Source: Clostridia bacterium (GTDB taxonomy: Bacteria; Bacillota; DSM-521; Neomoorellales; SLTJ01). Taken from it: 64,000 nucleotides of DNA. Every line of letters begins with the position of its first letter. Within the stretch, counting starts at the first letter, position 1. Below the pieces are notes generated by a model, which saw only the letters and a program-made list of their open reading frames with translations, was not told the origin of the DNA and did not search any database. Location of the stretch: positions 3,157-67,156 of the forward strand of contig SLTJ01000021.1 of NCBI GenBank assembly GCA_004347685.1, in the 5' to 3' direction. This document shows, piece by piece, positions 3,359 through 22,920 of this stretch. A program made the translations under genes and the position numbers.

Positions 3359-3525
3359 GGGGCTGAAAAACAAATTACTGGCTTCGCTAGGCCTTTGAGT
3401 CCGCACATCTGCGCCAAGTGCAACGGCATGAAAACCAGGGCGGCTGAGGTGGGCCTGGATCAGGAACCGGCGACGCCGGTTCCTACAAGTGCCCCACCTC
3501 ACACCTCTCAGGGAGGTCCGGGCCC

Positions 3526-16022: not shown

Positions 16023-19000
16023 CTAACCTCTAACCTCCGCTGTTAGGGCCCGGCGCACCGCCTCTGGTATCAAGTCCCCTACCCGGCCGGTGGCCACGCT
16101 GACCGTGCTGTCGGCCGCACCATAGTAAACCAGGATTTCGTCCTCGTCGTCCAAGATGCTCTTGTCCCCCTTTGGCACGGCGCCGCAGGTAAAAACGACG
16201 TTCGGCACCCAGCACTTGCCTTCTGCGCCTACTTCATACTCACACTCCGGCTCCAGGACGGGATTGGGGGAACGGTAAAGCACCTTGCCCGGGTCGGCCA
16301 GATCCACCAGCAGTATCCCCAGGCGATAGGACAGGGCATAGTCCACGCCATGATAGATCAGGAGCCAGCCGTATCTCGTCTTCAGGGGCTGGGCCCCGGC
16401 ACCGATCTTCACCCCATCCCACATCATCCCCGACCTGGGCCCCATGACGATGCGGTGGCCTTCCCGGGACCAGGGGCATTTTATGGCCTCGGCAAAGGAA
16501 ATCCACATGCTGGGCGCCACCCGGTGGTACATGGCATACCTGCCAGCAAATTTTTCCGGAAAAAGAAAGGCATCCTTATTGGTTACCCCGGGAAAGGCCA
16601 GCCCCATCCGCTCCCACTTCTCCCAGCGATAAGCGAGAAAATCCTCCACGCGGATGCGGGCCATGGCGATCTGCGGCACCAGACCGTCATAGGCGGTATA
16701 CAGGATATATACCTGCCCCTCCATGACGGTGGCGCGGGGATCCTCACACCCCTTGGATTCAGCCGGGCCGGCCGGCACCAGCACCGGCTCAGGCAGCCGC
16801 TCGGCAACGTTATACCCGTCGTCACTTACGGCCAGGCCCAGGCGCGAGACCTCGTCGTCCCCCACGGCCCGGTAGAGGATATATACTCGCCCGTTCAGCC
16901 GCAGGGCCGCGCTGTTGAGCACGTACTTGTTCTCCCACCAGTGCCCCGGCACCGGTTCCAGAACGGGGTTGTTCTTGTACCTTTCCAGCCGGCCAGCCAG
17001 CGGCTCGCCTACCACCGGAGATTGCTCCAGCAGCAGGTCTTTGGCCTCCTTGTGGCCGAGGAGGATCTCAGCCAAGTCCTGGGACTCGGCCCCCATGCTT
17101 ATTAACTCCACAATCTTCTCCTCAACCTCGGCCGGGCTGATTCCGGCCGCCTGGCAGTAGGCCAGGAGAAACTCATGACTAAACCAGTCCCGCTCCACAT
17201 GCAGGGATAGGGGCGCGGGAACACTCTTGCCGCCCTTGAAACTGTAACTTGCCCAGGTCCAGGCCGAACAGGGGATAAACCGGCCGTCCGGCATGGTCAG
17301 AGCCAGGTGATAGCTGTCAGCCACCAGCCTGAGGTTGGCCAGGAACTCCTGCCACTCGGGCGGTCCGCTCTGGGCTTCCAGTTTCTCCAGCATCTGGCGC
17401 AGCCTAACCACGAGCAGGCGCTGGTGCCCGTTTTCAAAGATATTGTGGGCAGAGAACGGGCTGCGTCCCCAGTGCCCTTCGATGGAGTTACATATTTTCC
17501 CTCCGAACTCCCGCCGCTCGCGGGCAAACCGCTGCCAGATCTGGCTGAATCTCTCGCCTTCCACGAAGTTCTTGGCCAGGACGGTCAGATACCGCAACTT
17601 GGGGAATTCCCCGCCGGTATTCTTGCGCAGGTTGCTCACCACTACCCGCCCGGCCAGGCGGTCCAGGGCCGAGGTTTCCTTCATCTCCACCAGGGAAGGG
17701 AAATCTTCGTGGGCCACCACCAGCACCTTCAGGTCGGTGAGGGCGAAATGTTCCGGCCGGGCAAAATCCCGCAGCCATTCGGCAATGCGCTCCCCGAAGT
17801 CCCGCGCCTCCGACCACCCGGCTAGAGCCAGCACGTCCAGCGGGTCCCTCCCCGCGAGAAGGCTGGTTACATCCTGGCAATCCCACCGGGTCATCAAGTT
17901 TACCGGGGGATAATGGCGCAGAAGCCAGGTGGCCGCCTCAGGCTGCAGGGTCAAAACCTGGCCGTGGGGAATATGGCTGGCCACCGCCTCGGCCACCGCC
18001 CGCGTTCCTTCCACCGTACACAGGTCCCCAGGCAACAGGAGGTCCAAGCCGGCCTCGGTGCGGCGGAGGAAGTCCCGCACCGCCTGGGCTATCTCCTGGG
18101 AAGTAACTCCCCGGTGTACCCCCAGGCGCTCATAAATAAAGGCGTCGAATTCTGCCTTGTACCGCCGCAGCAGACCTTCGTAGATGGGCGCCACGCTCAC
18201 CGGATGCCCTTCGGGAGAGAGGGTTTCCTGGGGCAACACCAGGGGCACCCCTGGGACAAACTCCCAGTAGGCTACCTTAGGAATGAAGGACTCCACGGCC
18301 TGGCTTTCTTCGCGCCACCGGGCGAGAAACGCCGGCCGCTCCTTGCGGAAGACCTCAGCCTGATCCTCCACCATCCGCTCGGCCTGCAGGTCCAGCAGGG
18401 ATTCCACGTCGTCCGGGTTCAGCCTCTCCAGGTAGCTGCGGAAGGACGCCAGTTCCCGCTCAAAGCCGGCCACCCGGCCCTGGAACAGAGCCACCAGGGC
18501 GTTCAGCAGGTCCCCCCGTGCCAGATCATGGCTGAAGGCATAGGTTAGCAAGAAGGCGTAAACCGTCTTGGACCAGAGGTCGGGCGAAAAGTTAAATTCG
18601 CCGTACCCGGCGTTCGCCAGCTCGGCCAGCCGGCGGTAAACCTCCTCGGGTAGAATCCTCTCCAGAAGGGATTCGTGAAACCGGTTGTACCCCTGGCGGA
18701 AGCGGTTGACCAAAGCCTGGTAATTGATCTGCATCCAGGCGCCCACATCCGAATCCGCTTTATACCCGAACATGCTGACCAGGTACACCGACCCCGCCTT
18801 CTGGCGCCACCACTCCTGGTGCAGGATGATCTGGTCAAAGAGCACCTTGGCCACCTGGCGGAAAATGAACTCCTGTTTGCCGGGTGAGGACCGGTGCAGT
18901 TTTACCCCCAGGCTGGTCTCGCCGATACGGGCTTCCCGGACAATGGCCTTGGTGAGCAACCAGACGTCAATGCCGTAAGCGCCGACATCGCCGTGCCAGC

Positions 19001-19655
19001 TCGCCTGGTCGCCCAAGAACACTGGCAGCATCTGGTTGGCAATGGCGATTTCGCCCCCCAGGGGTTCCCGGATGCGCACATTATAAATGGCCGTTATCAA
19101 GGGGTAAACCAGGCTGTTGCTGGCGATGGCTTCCAGATAATGGCGGGTAAACCGGGGAAAGACCATATCTACTTGGCCGTTACGGACGGGTTCTAAAAGT
19201 AACTTGACCCATTCCCCGGTAAGGCCCAGGGTGCGGCCGTCCTTTTCAGCCGTCTCCAGGTCGGCTTCAAAGATGGCCACGTCCGCCTCCAGTTCCCGGG
19301 CTATCTCCATGATGGCCCGGATGCTCCACCCCTTGCCGTTTATGCTCGGGTGGTGAAAAGTAAAGGCCAGACGGGTCACCTTCGGATTGGGCCCCGGCAA
19401 TGCTTCCACGACCCTGAGAACCTCCTGGCCAACCGGGGATCCTGCCAGGACAATGACGGCAGACTGGTCAGGATAATAGGTAGCCAGCCCCTCCTGAACC
19501 GTCTCCACGACCCTGGTTATTGTATCCGCCTCATTATAAAAGGGAATGCCTACGACTATGTCTGCCTGGCCAATTCTCCTGGCCTGCTCCAGCGGGGCAG
19601 CCATACATTCGCGGTAAGCGCGCTCCAGTTCCCTGTCAACTTCCTCCCCTGACAT
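16023..19655 (-). CDS. Fusion: glucosylglycerate/mannosylglycerate-synthase-like glycosyltransferase + unknown middle domain + GH130 glycoside phosphorylase
   Basis: N-terminus: IVVGIPFYNE, GKG, EADL, RH...SN.LVYPL, REPLGGE, YGIDVW, KLH. C-terminus: NNPVL.P, VLNSAA, GCEDPR, NKD..LFPEK, YHR, KIGAG, YHG, PNVVF, YYGAADS. Start MSGEE after RBS GGGAGGG. Confidence 0.8.
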   Translation of the reverse strand: MSGEEVDRELERAYRECMAAPLEQARRIGQADIVVGIPFYNEADTITRVVETVQEGLATYYPDQSAVIVLAGSPVGQEVLRVVEALPGPNPKVTRLAFTFHHPSINGKGWSIRAIMEIARELEADVAIFEADLETAEKDGRTLGLTGEWVKLLLEPVRNGQVDMVFPRFTRHYLEAIASNSLVYPLITAIYNVRIREPLGGEIAIANQMLPVFLGDQASWHGDVGAYGIDVWLLTKAIVREARIGETSLGVKLHRSSPGKQEFIFRQVAKVLFDQIILHQEWWRQKAGSVYLVSMFGYKADSDVGAWMQINYQALVNRFRQGYNRFHESLLERILPEEVYRRLAELANAGYGEFNFSPDLWSKTVYAFLLTYAFSHDLARGDLLNALVALFQGRVAGFERELASFRSYLERLNPDDVESLLDLQAERMVEDQAEVFRKERPAFLARWREESQAVESFIPKVAYWEFVPGVPLVLPQETLSPEGHPVSVAPIYEGLLRRYKAEFDAFIYERLGVHRGVTSQEIAQAVRDFLRRTEAGLDLLLPGDLCTVEGTRAVAEAVASHIPHGQVLTLQPEAATWLLRHYPPVNLMTRWDCQDVTSLLAGRDPLDVLALAGWSEARDFGERIAEWLRDFARPEHFALTDLKVLVVAHEDFPSLVEMKETSALDRLAGRVVVSNLRKNTGGEFPKLRYLTVLAKNFVEGERFSQIWQRFARERREFGGKICNSIEGHWGRSPFSAHNIFENGHQRLLVVRLRQMLEKLEAQSGPPEWQEFLANLRLVADSYHLALTMPDGRFIPCSAWTWASYSFKGGKSVPAPLSLHVERDWFSHEFLLAYCQAAGISPAEVEEKIVELISMGAESQDLAEILLGHKEAKDLLLEQSPVVGEPLAGRLERYKNNPVLEPVPGHWWENKYVLNSAALRLNGRVYILYRAVGDDEVSRLGLAVSDDGYNVAERLPEPVLVPAGPAESKGCEDPRATVMEGQVYILYTAYDGLVPQIAMARIRVEDFLAYRWEKWERMGLAFPGVTNKDAFLFPEKFAGRYAMYHRVAPSMWISFAEAIKCPWSREGHRIVMGPRSGMMWDGVKIGAGAQPLKTRYGWLLIYHGVDYALSYRLGILLVDLADPGKVLYRSPNPVLEPECEYEVGAEGKCWVPNVVFTCGAVPKGDKSILDDEDEILVYYGAADSTVSVATGRVGDLIPEAVRRALTAEVRG

Positions 19656-19852
19656 ACTGCCCTCCCACTCCTCCGGCCGGCACCAGCGCCGCCATATAGC
19701 AAAATGCTCCCAACTGTACACATCATATGGCTGCCGGGCCGCAAAGGTACCTGTCAAAACGCCATTAAGCTTCTCTATGATAAACCAAAATCCTTGTCCA
19801 GTCTACACTGAAGCTCAAATTATGCGCTGTATAATAATAGCGATGATGGCAC

Positions 19853-19900: not shown

Positions 19901-19986
19901 AGAACCAATACTCCCCCGGAAAATAGAGGTGGGAGGTGAGAGGAGGCTGGGTAGTTACTATTCGGACTTAAGGGCCTAGTATCTGC

Positions 19987-21267
19987 TTATTTCTGGCGGC
20001 GGCGTACGCCGTTGGGATAGGCCAAGACCCGCTTTTCCCAGGTGCGGATGACCACTTTACCAGAGTCACGTTCCAGCAGGTATTCTGGCAGGACCGGGAC
20101 CTTACCGTAACCGCGGGGGGCATTGATAATGTATGTGGGCACCGCCAGCCCGGAGGTATAACCGCGCAACTGCTCCATGATCTCCAGCCCCTCGTCCACC
20201 GAGGTGATAAAGTGCGCCGTCCCGCTCACCTGCTTGGCGTGGAAAATATAATACGGCCGGACGCGGATCTTCAACAGTTCCTGGTTCAGCTTCTTCATGA
20301 CAAAGGGATGACTGTTAACGCCCTTGAGCAGCACGGCCTGGTTGCCCAGCACCACGCCGGCCCTGGCCAGCATAGCCGTGGCCCGGGCCGCCGCGGGCGT
20401 GACCTCGCGGGGGTGGTTGAACTGGGTGTTCAGGTAGAGCGGGGGATGCGCCTCGAGTATGGCGCACAGTTCGGGGGTAATGCGCTGCGGCAGAGTTACC
20501 GGGACCCGCGTGCCGATCCGCTTGATCTCCACGTGAGGGATGGCGTCCAGTTCCCCCAGCAGCCAGTCAATCTGCCGGTCGGAAAGCATCAGAGCGTCAC
20601 CGCCGGTAAGGAGCACGTCGCGGATTTCGGGATTGGCCCGGATGTAGTCCAGGGCCGCTTCCAATTCCACCCGGGACTTATTCTTATCCACCTCGCCGAT
20701 ATTCCGGCGGCGCTGGCAATGGCGGCAGTACATGGCGCAGCGGTTGGTCACGTTGATTATCAGCCGGTCCGGGTATCTCCTGGTGATGCAGGGCGCCGGC
20801 GAGGTGAATTCTTCGGCCATGGGGTCACTTTCGCCCACCGAGGTGTCCAGTTCCAGGATGCTGGGCACAGCCTGGCGCCTGACCGGGCTTTCCGGGTCAT
20901 CCAGGTCAATGAGGCTGGCATAATAAGGAGAAATGGCCCAGCGGAACCTCTCCCCCACCCGGCGAATCTGTTCCTGCTCGATACGGGACAGATCGAGGAT
21001 CTCGGCCAGGACGCCGACTTCGGTAATGCGGTTGGCCATCTGCCACTTCCAGTTGGCCCAGTCCTCCTCACTGCCGCCAAGAACTCCCAGGATTCGCCTT
21101 CTGTTTCTCTCCGTGACCTCCTCCCGGTTGAAGCCAGTAGGGATATTTGGCTGCTCTTCCAGGTAATTGGCAATCCGCTCGCGTAACTGGCGACTGCGCC
21201 GCAGGGCTATCTGCCTTTTCTCCCCGTTGCTCAGAAACCCCCGCAGATCGCCCTCCCGGTTCAGCAT
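19987..21267 (-). CDS. eam: Glutamate 2,3-aminomutase (KamA-like radical SAM/PLP enzyme)
   Basis: CAMYCRHCQRRR, ITRRYPDR, DVLLTGGD and RPYYIFHAK. The N-terminal extension (KRQIALRRS.QLRERI..YL....IPTG....NRRRILGVLGG.EEDW) fits the EAM subfamily rather than KamA. RBS AGGAGG. Confidence 0.85.
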   Translation of the reverse strand: MLNREGDLRGFLSNGEKRQIALRRSRQLRERIANYLEEQPNIPTGFNREEVTERNRRRILGVLGGSEEDWANWKWQMANRITEVGVLAEILDLSRIEQEQIRRVGERFRWAISPYYASLIDLDDPESPVRRQAVPSILELDTSVGESDPMAEEFTSPAPCITRRYPDRLIINVTNRCAMYCRHCQRRRNIGEVDKNKSRVELEAALDYIRANPEIRDVLLTGGDALMLSDRQIDWLLGELDAIPHVEIKRIGTRVPVTLPQRITPELCAILEAHPPLYLNTQFNHPREVTPAAARATAMLARAGVVLGNQAVLLKGVNSHPFVMKKLNQELLKIRVRPYYIFHAKQVSGTAHFITSVDEGLEIMEQLRGYTSGLAVPTYIINAPRGYGKVPVLPEYLLERDSGKVVIRTWEKRVLAYPNGVRRRQK

Positions 21268-21330
21268 ATAAACCCCTCCTTTTCCCACGGTATGTACAGA
21301 TCCGCTGGAAAGGAGGTCGGACACAAAAAA

Positions 21331-21714
21331 CACCCCCTCTTTCCACGCCTACGGGGTTAGCTGACGGGTTCGGGTTGAAAGAGTAACCCTACCTGGAACA
21401 GAGGTCAGAGGCAGGAAGTTAGAGGCCGGAACCTCATAGGAAAAGGCTGTTCCGGTGCCGAAACCAAGAGCCGATCTTTAGCCATACCGCCGTCTGGCGA
21501 TCACGAAACCCGGGCTAGATCGTACCAGCCGGGCTGCGGACATATGTCTACGACCAGCCACCAGCCGGACCAGTCCGGCACTATCGGCCCCGGTAGCGAC
21601 CGGGACAACCGGCCCGGTCAATACCCTCGACTCTTACCTCTGTTTCAGGATTCACCCCAAAAAACGGGTCCCCCGCTTCTCCCTTTCCAGGGAGAACTAA
21701 GCGATCACGAGGAT
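21331..21714 (-). ncRNA. c-di-AMP (ydaO/yuaA) riboswitch with a large internal insertion
   Basis: 5' part GATCGCTTAG...GCGGGGGACCCGTTTTTTGGGGTGAATCC and 3' part AGGTAGGGTTACTCTTTCAACCCGAACCCGTCAGCTAACCCCGTAGGCGTGGAAAGAGG, then a T tract. The halves are separated by ~258 nt. Confidence 0.88.
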
Positions 21715-21724
21715 CTGTATCCTT

Positions 21725-21753
21725 ATTATACTACATTTAGGCCGCTTTGGCTA
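21725..21753 (-). promoter_or_regulatory. SigA promoter of the eam leader
   Basis: TAGCCA-17 nt-TATAAT just upstream of the aptamer. Confidence 0.65.
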
Positions 21754-21927
21754 CCATTATTTTTTCCAGGCAACCCAGCGTTGCCATCTAAGATGTGAGA
21801 TGAGATGTACGGTCCCCCCTGCCGCAACCTTTTCAGAAGATCACTGAAGAACCCTACCCGACCAGCCGAAACCAAACGCTGCGCGTGATTTCCTTACCAC
21901 TTGGCGAAAATGTTCGGACTTGAGGGC

Positions 21928-22920
21928 CTAAGCGTTCCTGGCCCTCTCCCAAGCCTGCTCCAGGGAGCGCCGCAGGAGTACCCCGGCCACCTGCCGCCGG
22001 TAGCCGGCGGGAACGTCCATGGCGCCGGCATAGGTGACGAAACCCATGGCCTTTACCGCTTCTCCGGCCACCTCGTCCAGGAGCCAGGTGGTTATTTCCC
22101 GGCCCTCTAACTGTTTTACCGGCAAGGGGGTGGGCGCCACTACGCTGCCGGAAACGGCAGCCGAGGCTTCCCGGCAGGTACGGCCGTCCTCGGCCAGGGA
22201 GATCACGGCCGCGACATTTACCAGGGCAAAGTCCAGGGTCTGGCGCCGGGCCAACTTGATGAAGGCGCTCCCTGTCCCGGCCGGGCAGGGTGGGAGAAGG
22301 ATGTGGGTCAATATCTCCCCGGGCTCGAGGGTGTGGGGGGCGGCCCCATCGGCCCGGTAGAGATCTTTTACCGCCAGGAGGCGGCTTCCGGAGGCAGACT
22401 GCACCTCAACCCGGGCTCCTATGGCCACCAGGGCCGGCACCAGGTCCGAACTGGCCGCAGCCCGGCACTGCCTCCCGGAGGGGAAAACATAGCACCTCTC
22501 GCCACCGCGCTTGAAACACTGCTCTTTCCCCCGCCACCATTCCCCGGACCGGTTGTAGTACCAGCAGCGGTTGTCAACAAGGAGATTGCCACCAACAGTA
22601 CCCATGTGGCGGAGTGTCCAGGCGGCCACCCGGGAGGCAGCCTGGGCCAGGGCCGGCCACGCGGTCAAACCTGTAACCTCATTCACGCTGACGGCGGCGC
22701 CAATCGCCGTGCTGCCGTCCTCCCTGGCCGATACCTGTTTTAGCCCGGCAATACCCTTAATATTCACCAGCAGGCCGGCGGCAATACCTCGCCTTTTCAT
22801 GGCCGGCAAAAGGTCTGTGCCGCCGGCCAGTACTCTGGCCTGGCCTGCGGCTTGCCCAAGGAGGTTTATTGCCTCTTCCAGGCTGGCCGGGCTGGCGCAC
22901 TCAAAAGGAGGCAATCTCAT
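21928..22920 (-). CDS. FAD-binding subunit of a xanthine-dehydrogenase-family enzyme with a [4Fe-4S] loop (HcrB-like)
   Basis: LAGGTDL, TVGGNL, CWYYNRSGEWWR...CFKRGG.RC......C four-Cys insert, SDLVPAL, DFALV. Confidence 0.88.
   Translation of the reverse strand: MRLPPFECASPASLEEAINLLGQAAGQARVLAGGTDLLPAMKRRGIAAGLLVNIKGIAGLKQVSAREDGSTAIGAAVSVNEVTGLTAWPALAQAASRVAAWTLRHMGTVGGNLLVDNRCWYYNRSGEWWRGKEQCFKRGGERCYVFPSGRQCRAAASSDLVPALVAIGARVEVQSASGSRLLAVKDLYRADGAAPHTLEPGEILTHILLPPCPAGTGSAFIKLARRQTLDFALVNVAAVISLAEDGRTCREASAAVSGSVVAPTPLPVKQLEGREITTWLLDEVAGEAVKAMGFVTYAGAMDVPAGYRRQVAGVLLRRSLEQAWERARNA

Follow-up and report, generated by a model that had tools for sequence, protein, structure and literature searches.

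Co-transcribed hairpin repeats or MITEs are known from several bacterial groups, among them Correia/NEMIS from Neisseria, ERIC/IRU from enterobacteria and BOX/RUP from pneumococci, and Correia elements are substrates of RNase III when they are co-transcribed. The riboswitch class concerned here is that of the c-di-AMP (ydaO-type) riboswitches, Rfam family RF00379. Helix names are assigned here by position, and the peripheral hairpin at the centre of this work (RF00379 model positions ~58-76) is the pseudo-symmetry mate of P2. The YdaO riboswitch, which has been crystallised, has also served as a scaffold on which foreign hairpins were grafted onto the P2 loop with folding left undisturbed; the grafts were loops of up to 10 nt, and the authors caution that longer ones may interfere with folding (bioRxiv 10.1101/2020.05.05.078014). 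No paper describing hairpin repeats in the outer loops of riboswitches was found in the literature searched. The locus presented here lies in a window of 64,000 nucleotides (the whole stretch of DNA that was analysed), and belongs to this known class, in which it stands out by a repeat-derived helix extension of exceptional size. Our reading, held with moderate confidence, is that the extension is a tolerated passenger without a function of its own, which lengthens a dispensable helix of a translational c-di-AMP switch that still works.

The riboswitch spans ~382 nt, from 21330 to 21711 on the minus strand, ahead of eam (19987-21267, minus strand), an osmolyte gene coding for a glutamate 2,3-aminomutase of 426 aa (it scores 701 bits with the TIGR04368 equivalog, the cut-off of which is 650). 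A promoter-like site (TAGCCA, a 17-nt spacer and TATAAT; 10/12 in a consensus scan) is predicted upstream of the aptamer, at 21725-21753 on the same strand. The genome also encodes a diadenylate cyclase (a DAC-domain gene, 150 bits), which together with eam provides a suitable genomic context for a c-di-AMP switch, and it contains a second c-di-AMP riboswitch upstream of an APC-type amino-acid permease (G000:C7:47961-48188, equivalent to L009:1501-1728; 71.4 bits). The second riboswitch carries an insert of ~96 nt, located in another hairpin (model positions 40-49); this insert was considered and rejected as a member of the repeat family described below. Around 230 nt downstream of eam, and on the same strand, is an ORF of 1244 aa (16023-19757), the C-terminal ~300 aa of which show a GH130-like resemblance to beta-1,2-mannobiose phosphorylase, with a score of 247 bits that does not reach the cut-off. 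The remainder of this ORF had no match in NCBIfam, the sole library searched.

The 5' half of the aptamer (21650-21711, minus strand) was delimited by alignment with 23 relatives and by R1, a covariance model built from the 5' halves only of 20 orthologous leaders. Searched against the 64-kb window, R1 gave a sole match, at 21648-21711 on the minus strand (47.7 bits, E 4.4e-11). This half consists of the P1 5' strand CGCUU (21703-21699), the P2 hairpin and the P3 5' strand GCGGGG, followed by a small CCC/GGG hairpin and then the GGGGUGAAU junction, which ends at 21650. The 3' half (21330-21391, minus strand) was delimited by the RF00379 alignment, in which model positions ~66-134 align with high posterior to 21330-21396 on this strand. 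It starts with UAGGG from 21391 and continues with the P7 hairpin (GGGUU..AACCC), CCGAACCCGUCAGCUAACC, the P3 strand CCCCGU, the P1 3' strand AGGCG (21350-21346), the pseudoknot tail GGAAAGAG (21344-21337) and a U-run (21330-21325). Within the conserved block of this half containing CCCGAACCCGUCAGCUAACC, a 19-mer is equal to the consensus, with no differences. The P7 loop (CUCUUUC) is complementary to the tail (GAAAGAG), the two being part of an inverted repeat (I4) with 10-nt arms that are 90% complementary (21337-21346 and 21374-21383). Both halves of the aptamer are statistically supported and stand in the correct order. When the insert is swapped for a GAAA tetraloop, the aptamer matches 77 of the 87 columns with a conservation of 90% or more among the 23 orthologous leaders, and the departures are mostly pairing-preserving; they include a change from G-U to G-C in P3 and an altered P1 pair. 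The first junction reads UAG, where at least 90% of the relatives have GAA and one has GAG. The R1 match, the RF00379 alignment of the 3' half and the column count agree with the original observation, made from the letters of the sequence, that both conserved halves are intact.

The riboswitch escapes routine annotation. At the gathering score, RF00379 is unreported in the window, for which Rfam lists just a tRNA and a Moco riboswitch. At E<=10, the family scores 36 bits over 21330-21493, below its gathering threshold of 38; the 3' half is well aligned, and the 5' half is wrongly placed inside the insert. This sub-threshold score is caused by the insert. The suspicion that standard covariance searches might miss or mis-split such an aptamer was therefore justified on both counts, since it is absent at the gathering score and has a false 5' half at the permissive one. 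The case illustrates an annotation gap, in which a riboswitch drops below the Rfam threshold owing solely to an insert, and searches with split models would recover such cases. Nothing supports the nested second sensor that had been suggested for the insert, and apart from RF00379 no Rfam family was found in 21000-22000 at E<=10.

The insert measures 258 nt (21392-21649) and extends the hairpin between GGGGUGAAU and UAGGG, the site itself being a peripheral hairpin flanked by GGGGUGAAUC and GUAGGG. Read 5' to 3' along the RNA (minus strand), CCUG opens the insert hairpin at 21649 and CAGG closes it at 21392. Its outer arms, 21392-21410 and 21631-21649, are 19 nt long, 89% complementary (17/19) and 220 nt apart. 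Position and length are exactly as first proposed, to the base, the 17/19 arms were found again by a repeat search, and the four inner hairpins named beforehand are all present in the sequence. Folded alone, the insert is predicted to form one long, imperfect rod (-121.9 kcal/mol, z -4.49), equalled by none of 200 dinucleotide shuffles. In the unconstrained fold of the whole 391-nt leader, P1, P2, P3, the CCC/GGG hairpin and P7 are formed in both the MFE and the centroid structures, and in the MFE the insert is self-paired only, as a separate rod. This native-like MFE fits the initial view that a variable peripheral hairpin holds the insert, which folds out of the core. No terminator-like site was found inside the insert on the RNA strand.

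As to its origin, the insert is composite. The arm at the RNA 3' end gives BLAST matches of 83-92% elsewhere in the genome and in three other genomes. These matches led to a dispersed, hairpin-forming repeat, and an nhmmer profile of this repeat, built from genomic copies, matches 21397-21495 on the plus strand with 38.7-40 bits (E 1.2e-9 genome-wide, 7.5e-14 for the leader alone). The match covers model positions 9-106, densely for positions 9-68 (21397-21457) and sparsely beyond, so that the strong part accounts for only ~60 nt of the insert (~60-100 nt in all). The arm at the RNA 5' end, CCUGAAACAGAGGUAAGAGUC (21629-21649, minus strand), which pairs with 21392-21410, has a weak nhmmer match to model positions 3-24 in inverted orientation. 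Between the two lies a G+C-rich interior with several local hairpins (21496-21628, minus strand) and without detectable relative: neither blastn-short nor nhmmer in the genome, nor BLAST in 60 relatives, found a related sequence, and a single-sequence nhmmer search of the genome with a 171-nt query (21458-21628, which overlaps the weak tail of the repeat match) found only the query itself. A BLAST comparison with the genome had been put forward as the way to recognise a mobile, multicopy insert, and its outcome is mixed. The arm part does belong to a dispersed family, but the genome contains only one copy of the complete insert, the inner ~170 nt of which are unique.

The repeat family has 103 loci in the genome at E<1e-3, of which 57 reach E<1e-10. 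Most of these loci avoid long ORFs, and a fraction of 0.44 of the repeat bases falls in ORFs, compared with 0.89 genome-wide. Copies are mostly intergenic and sometimes tandem; examples in this genome (G000) are C21:11355-11511, C7:55129-55286 and C32:20311-20475. In the window, the profile also matches 3419-3509 on the minus strand and, weakly, 19915-19943 on the plus strand. The consensus is 157 nt long and bipartite. Module A is a long hairpin with a purine-rich arm of GAGAGGT-like 7-mers, a GGAAC...GTTCC apex and a pyrimidine-rich opposite arm, and module B is a separate, conserved 45-nt hairpin (CCTCTGTTGGTGCCRCC..GGYGGCATGGGGGTCTGCC), which is missing from the riboswitch copy. Among many genera of the order, module B on its own shows 85-95% identity. 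For a canonical copy of the repeat, the z-score of the fold is -4.2. Long-form members (C15:13788-14025, C23:43646-43883, C4:101400-101610, C1:181013-181231 and C40:176-433, all in G000) carry 80-128 extra nt at the apex, for a total of 205-258 nt, and their extra apical domain is closed by a conserved stem, GGCACUCAAC...GUUGAGUGCC. The existence of members with an enlarged apex places an enlarged interior such as that of the riboswitch copy within the habits of the family. The C40 copy has eight tandem GAGAGGT units in its arm, which indicates that the arms grow by slippage. The family is present in 24 of 61 related genomes, and searching Rfam with canonical and long-form copies gave no credible match. 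The case thus points to an undescribed bipartite repeat family, abundant in Moorella-related thermophiles and without an Rfam match.

The suggestion of a MITE-like element holds in part. A portion of the insert matches a hairpin repeat with ~103 loci, a repeat of the same superfamily is found in another genus (see below), and the 19-nt arms do qualify as terminal inverted repeats, although this is unspecific since the whole family is hairpin-shaped. Against it, the insert has no target-site duplication, its flanks CCUG and CAGG being complementary rather than direct repeats, and no transposase partner was found in a search for the Y1 family. The CCCTGAAA found at both ends of the canonical copies is identical in all of them, and is consequently part of the unit rather than a target-site duplication. 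A REP-RAYT model was rejected, because no gene for a Y1 (RAYT) transposase (PF01797) was found in the assembly, which is 99% complete. A MITE-like element is the closest of the three options first offered; a strict MITE is unsupported.

Downstream of the aptamer, the probable expression platform is formed by an anti-SD, CCUCCUUUCC (21316-21307), and the Shine-Dalgarno sequence, GGGAAAAGGAGGGG (21286-21273), both on the minus strand and paired with each other in the MFE. The tail GGAAAGAGGGGG, the anti-SD and the Shine-Dalgarno sequence can pair alternatively, and this three-part design recurs, though spelled with other letters, in L129 and L130, whose eam is 86% and 76% identical. Regulation of eam is thus most likely translational, according to the modelled structures. 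No canonical terminator was found at the U-run, which directly follows the tail and is conserved (also in L129 and L130); the translational model leaves it unexplained. Over 9 nt, the top of P2, CUGGAAAGG (21682-21690), is also perfectly complementary to the anti-SD region, CCUUUCCAG (21305-21313), 368 nt away. This complementarity may be a chance reuse of a purine motif or a further alternative pairing.

In the mechanism which we propose, the peripheral hairpin would have been enlarged to ~268 nt by repeat-derived DNA together with a unique interior of ~130-170 nt. In the transcript, the rod would pair with itself and extend the helix coaxially, pointing away from the ligand pockets, so that both pockets, P1/P3 and the pseudoknot of the P7 loop with the tail could form across the insert. 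With c-di-AMP bound, the tail GGAAAGAG would be held in the pseudoknot; this would leave the anti-SD CCUCCUUUCC available for sequestering the Shine-Dalgarno sequence and so turn eam off. Without ligand, the tail would pair with the anti-SD and free the ribosome site. A translational switch of this equilibrium type should be less sensitive to an extra 258 nt than a terminator racing the polymerase. We infer ligand binding and regulation by the switch, as well as this working of its platform, from the preserved anatomy. Among the features that count against the reading of a working switch with a tolerated passenger is the separation of the halves of P1 and P3 by ~330 nt, which makes misfolding during transcription possible.

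This separation can also be taken as a sign that the switch is decaying. The riboswitch would have been disabled or badly weakened by the insertion, eam would be constitutive or otherwise controlled, and the halves would be intact because the event is too recent. Together with the UAG found for GAA at the first junction and the warning of the authors of the YdaO scaffold that longer grafts may interfere with folding (bioRxiv 10.1101/2020.05.05.078014), it is the situation in the closest genomes which favours this explanation. In the three genomes of the same family (G001-G003; L020, L031 and L044) and in a 73% relative (L131), eam stands behind purA, and its leader is short and lacks a riboswitch, which means that the control is dispensable in this clade and that the link between riboswitch and eam has been lost or replaced within the family. 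It also means that the same-family genomes provide no empty site. Other genera have short hairpins at the insert site. The nearest eam relatives with the 3' half, L129 and L130, are available only as short Logan contigs (from runs SRR28876184 and SRR28822788) that start inside the 3' half of the aptamer. That these contig breaks are a sign of the repeat was rejected, since k-mers shared between species explain them. For the upstream FAD-subunit gene, an 89% relative was found, which has a different neighbour gene. Several observations speak against a recent, disabling insertion. The repeat-derived part is strongly diverged (40 bits, compared with 100-148 for typical copies), which argues for an old one, and the leader nevertheless agrees with 77 of the 87 conserved columns and retains both pseudoknot and platform. 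Moreover, L129 and L130 have a conserved 3' half and platform as well, and the MFE is native-like. We consider a decaying switch rather unlikely, though with a real chance of being correct, and retain the working switch with a tolerated extension as the better account.

The length of the extension was put in perspective by comparison with other eam leaders. RF00379 was detected with 96-109 bits in 16 of the 20 eam loci scanned, in sister families (for example Moorella and Thermanaeromonas). The same hairpin measures 8-113 nt in 49 other eam leaders (24 of relatives, the other 25 taken from a wider collection), compared with ~268 nt here; its usual size is ~10-20 nt, and most eam leaders are short at this site. 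The total length of RF00379 is 124-228 nt among the best 150 matches in 201 genomes of the phylum, in a search that is biased against large inserts. Variation at this hairpin is consequently routine, yet an insert of 258 nt is well beyond the 8-113 nt seen, in agreement with the unusual length originally claimed. Hairpins of 62-100 nt were observed in the eam leaders L025, L035, L039, L040, L046 and L047 (from genera g6 and g12, which are probably Moorella and its relatives). They share a conserved closing stem, CCCGCRCUCAG...CUGAGUGCGGGG, and have a variable, A+U-rich apex. This extended helix of the Moorella type is lineage-specific and unrelated to the repeat family.

A second insertion at the same hairpin was found in a Pelotomaculum MAG (L056), the eam of which is ~65% identical. 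Its eam riboswitch scores 86.8 bits with RF00379 and carries a 113-nt insert, which has eight matches in its own genome (seven besides itself), one of them 87% identical over nearly the full length. The repeat profile matches this insert with an E-value of 1.5e-6, so that it belongs to the same repeat superfamily. The presence of inserts of this superfamily in two genera implies either an unusual tolerance of the loop for such hairpins or a tendency of the loop to attract them. A resemblance was also noted in G019 (L022), where CTGAAAACAGAGGT is common to the short hairpin, CUCUGAAAACAGAG, and the terminus of the repeat; with ~11 letters independent of the riboswitch core, this sequence likeness is only suggestive. 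The hairpin of the eam-linked c-di-AMP riboswitch hence seems to take up foreign hairpins repeatedly (113 nt in Pelotomaculum, 258 nt here), which is useful for the engineering of grafts. As a separate observation, the Pelotomaculum leader also contains a Na+ riboswitch (RF03071, 653-713; 46 bits, the cut-off being 40.5), which precedes the c-di-AMP riboswitch (817-1054) by ~100 nt, and may be a case of tandem Na+ and c-di-AMP control of an osmolyte gene.

The recurrence in two distant genera raises the question of whether the insert is functional, with the rod acting as an RNase III entry site (for half-life or splitting of the leader), as a protein-binding array of 7-mers, or as a delay or temperature element. 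The rod is indeed long and near-continuous, the repeat family has persisted in many genera of the order (it occurs in 24 of the 61 genomes), and RNase III is known to cleave Correia elements that are co-transcribed. The tolerance of the loop explains the recurrence equally well, however, and the interior has no homologue and hence shows no sign of constraint, the hairpin is short in most eam leaders, and no Rfam family matches. A function of the insert is on balance improbable. In its strongest form, the hairpin repeat would be a working RNA module under selection, with the rod as a second input read by a double-strand RNase or by a protein recognising the 7-mers; the leader might then be cut and still assemble as a "split" aptamer, or its lifetime be set independently of c-di-AMP. 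We would give this version only a slight chance.

Still less can be said for local growth of the helix, by which it would have expanded in place through slippage of short units, its likeness to the repeat being a convergent, low-complexity similarity. The continuous variation of the hairpin in relatives (8-113 nt) and the expanding 7-mer arms of the family, with the eight GAGAGGT units of the C40 copy, would suit such a process. The match, however, includes the non-repetitive apical GGAAC...GTTCC hairpin and has an E-value of 1.2e-9 genome-wide, and the genome of the Pelotomaculum MAG contains a further full-length copy of its insert with 87% identity, which makes growth in place very improbable. 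Finally, a misassembly joining a repeat into the leader, conceivable in a draft genome of 54 contigs given that the insert holds repeat-family sequence, is extremely improbable, since the insert is deep within a 68.9-kb contig, its ends pair exactly at the hairpin, and the collinear halves of the aptamer share one orientation.

The reading of a tolerated passenger in a working switch leaves the current understanding of how c-di-AMP riboswitches work unchanged. The full leader and its short-hairpin relatives do however constitute a natural test pair for the distance (here ~330 nt) at which the two parts of a pseudo-dimeric aptamer may stand and still fold and regulate.

Compared with Correia/NEMIS, ERIC/IRU and BOX/RUP, the repeat described here is alike in being short, non-coding, dispersed (~100 copies) and mostly intergenic, and in forming long hairpins if transcribed. 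It differs from them in having neither a target-site duplication nor a Y1/RAYT gene, and in its reiterated 7-mer arms and bipartite unit, to which the riboswitch copy adds a unique interior. With respect to the RF00379 class, as represented by ydaO/kimA of B. subtilis and by the Thermoanaerobacter structures 4QLM and 4QK8, the core and both halves are alike, as are the long-range helices P1 and P3, the pseudoknot between the P7 loop and the tail, and the osmolyte-related target gene; what sets this member apart is a hairpin of ~268 nt, a total length of ~382 nt and a score below the gathering threshold. The engineered YdaO scaffold shares with it a peripheral hairpin that accepts foreign stem-loops, as was demonstrated by experiment for the scaffold. 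The grafts were placed on P2 and did not exceed 10 nt, whereas here the hairpin that is the symmetry mate carries a natural insert of 258 nt.
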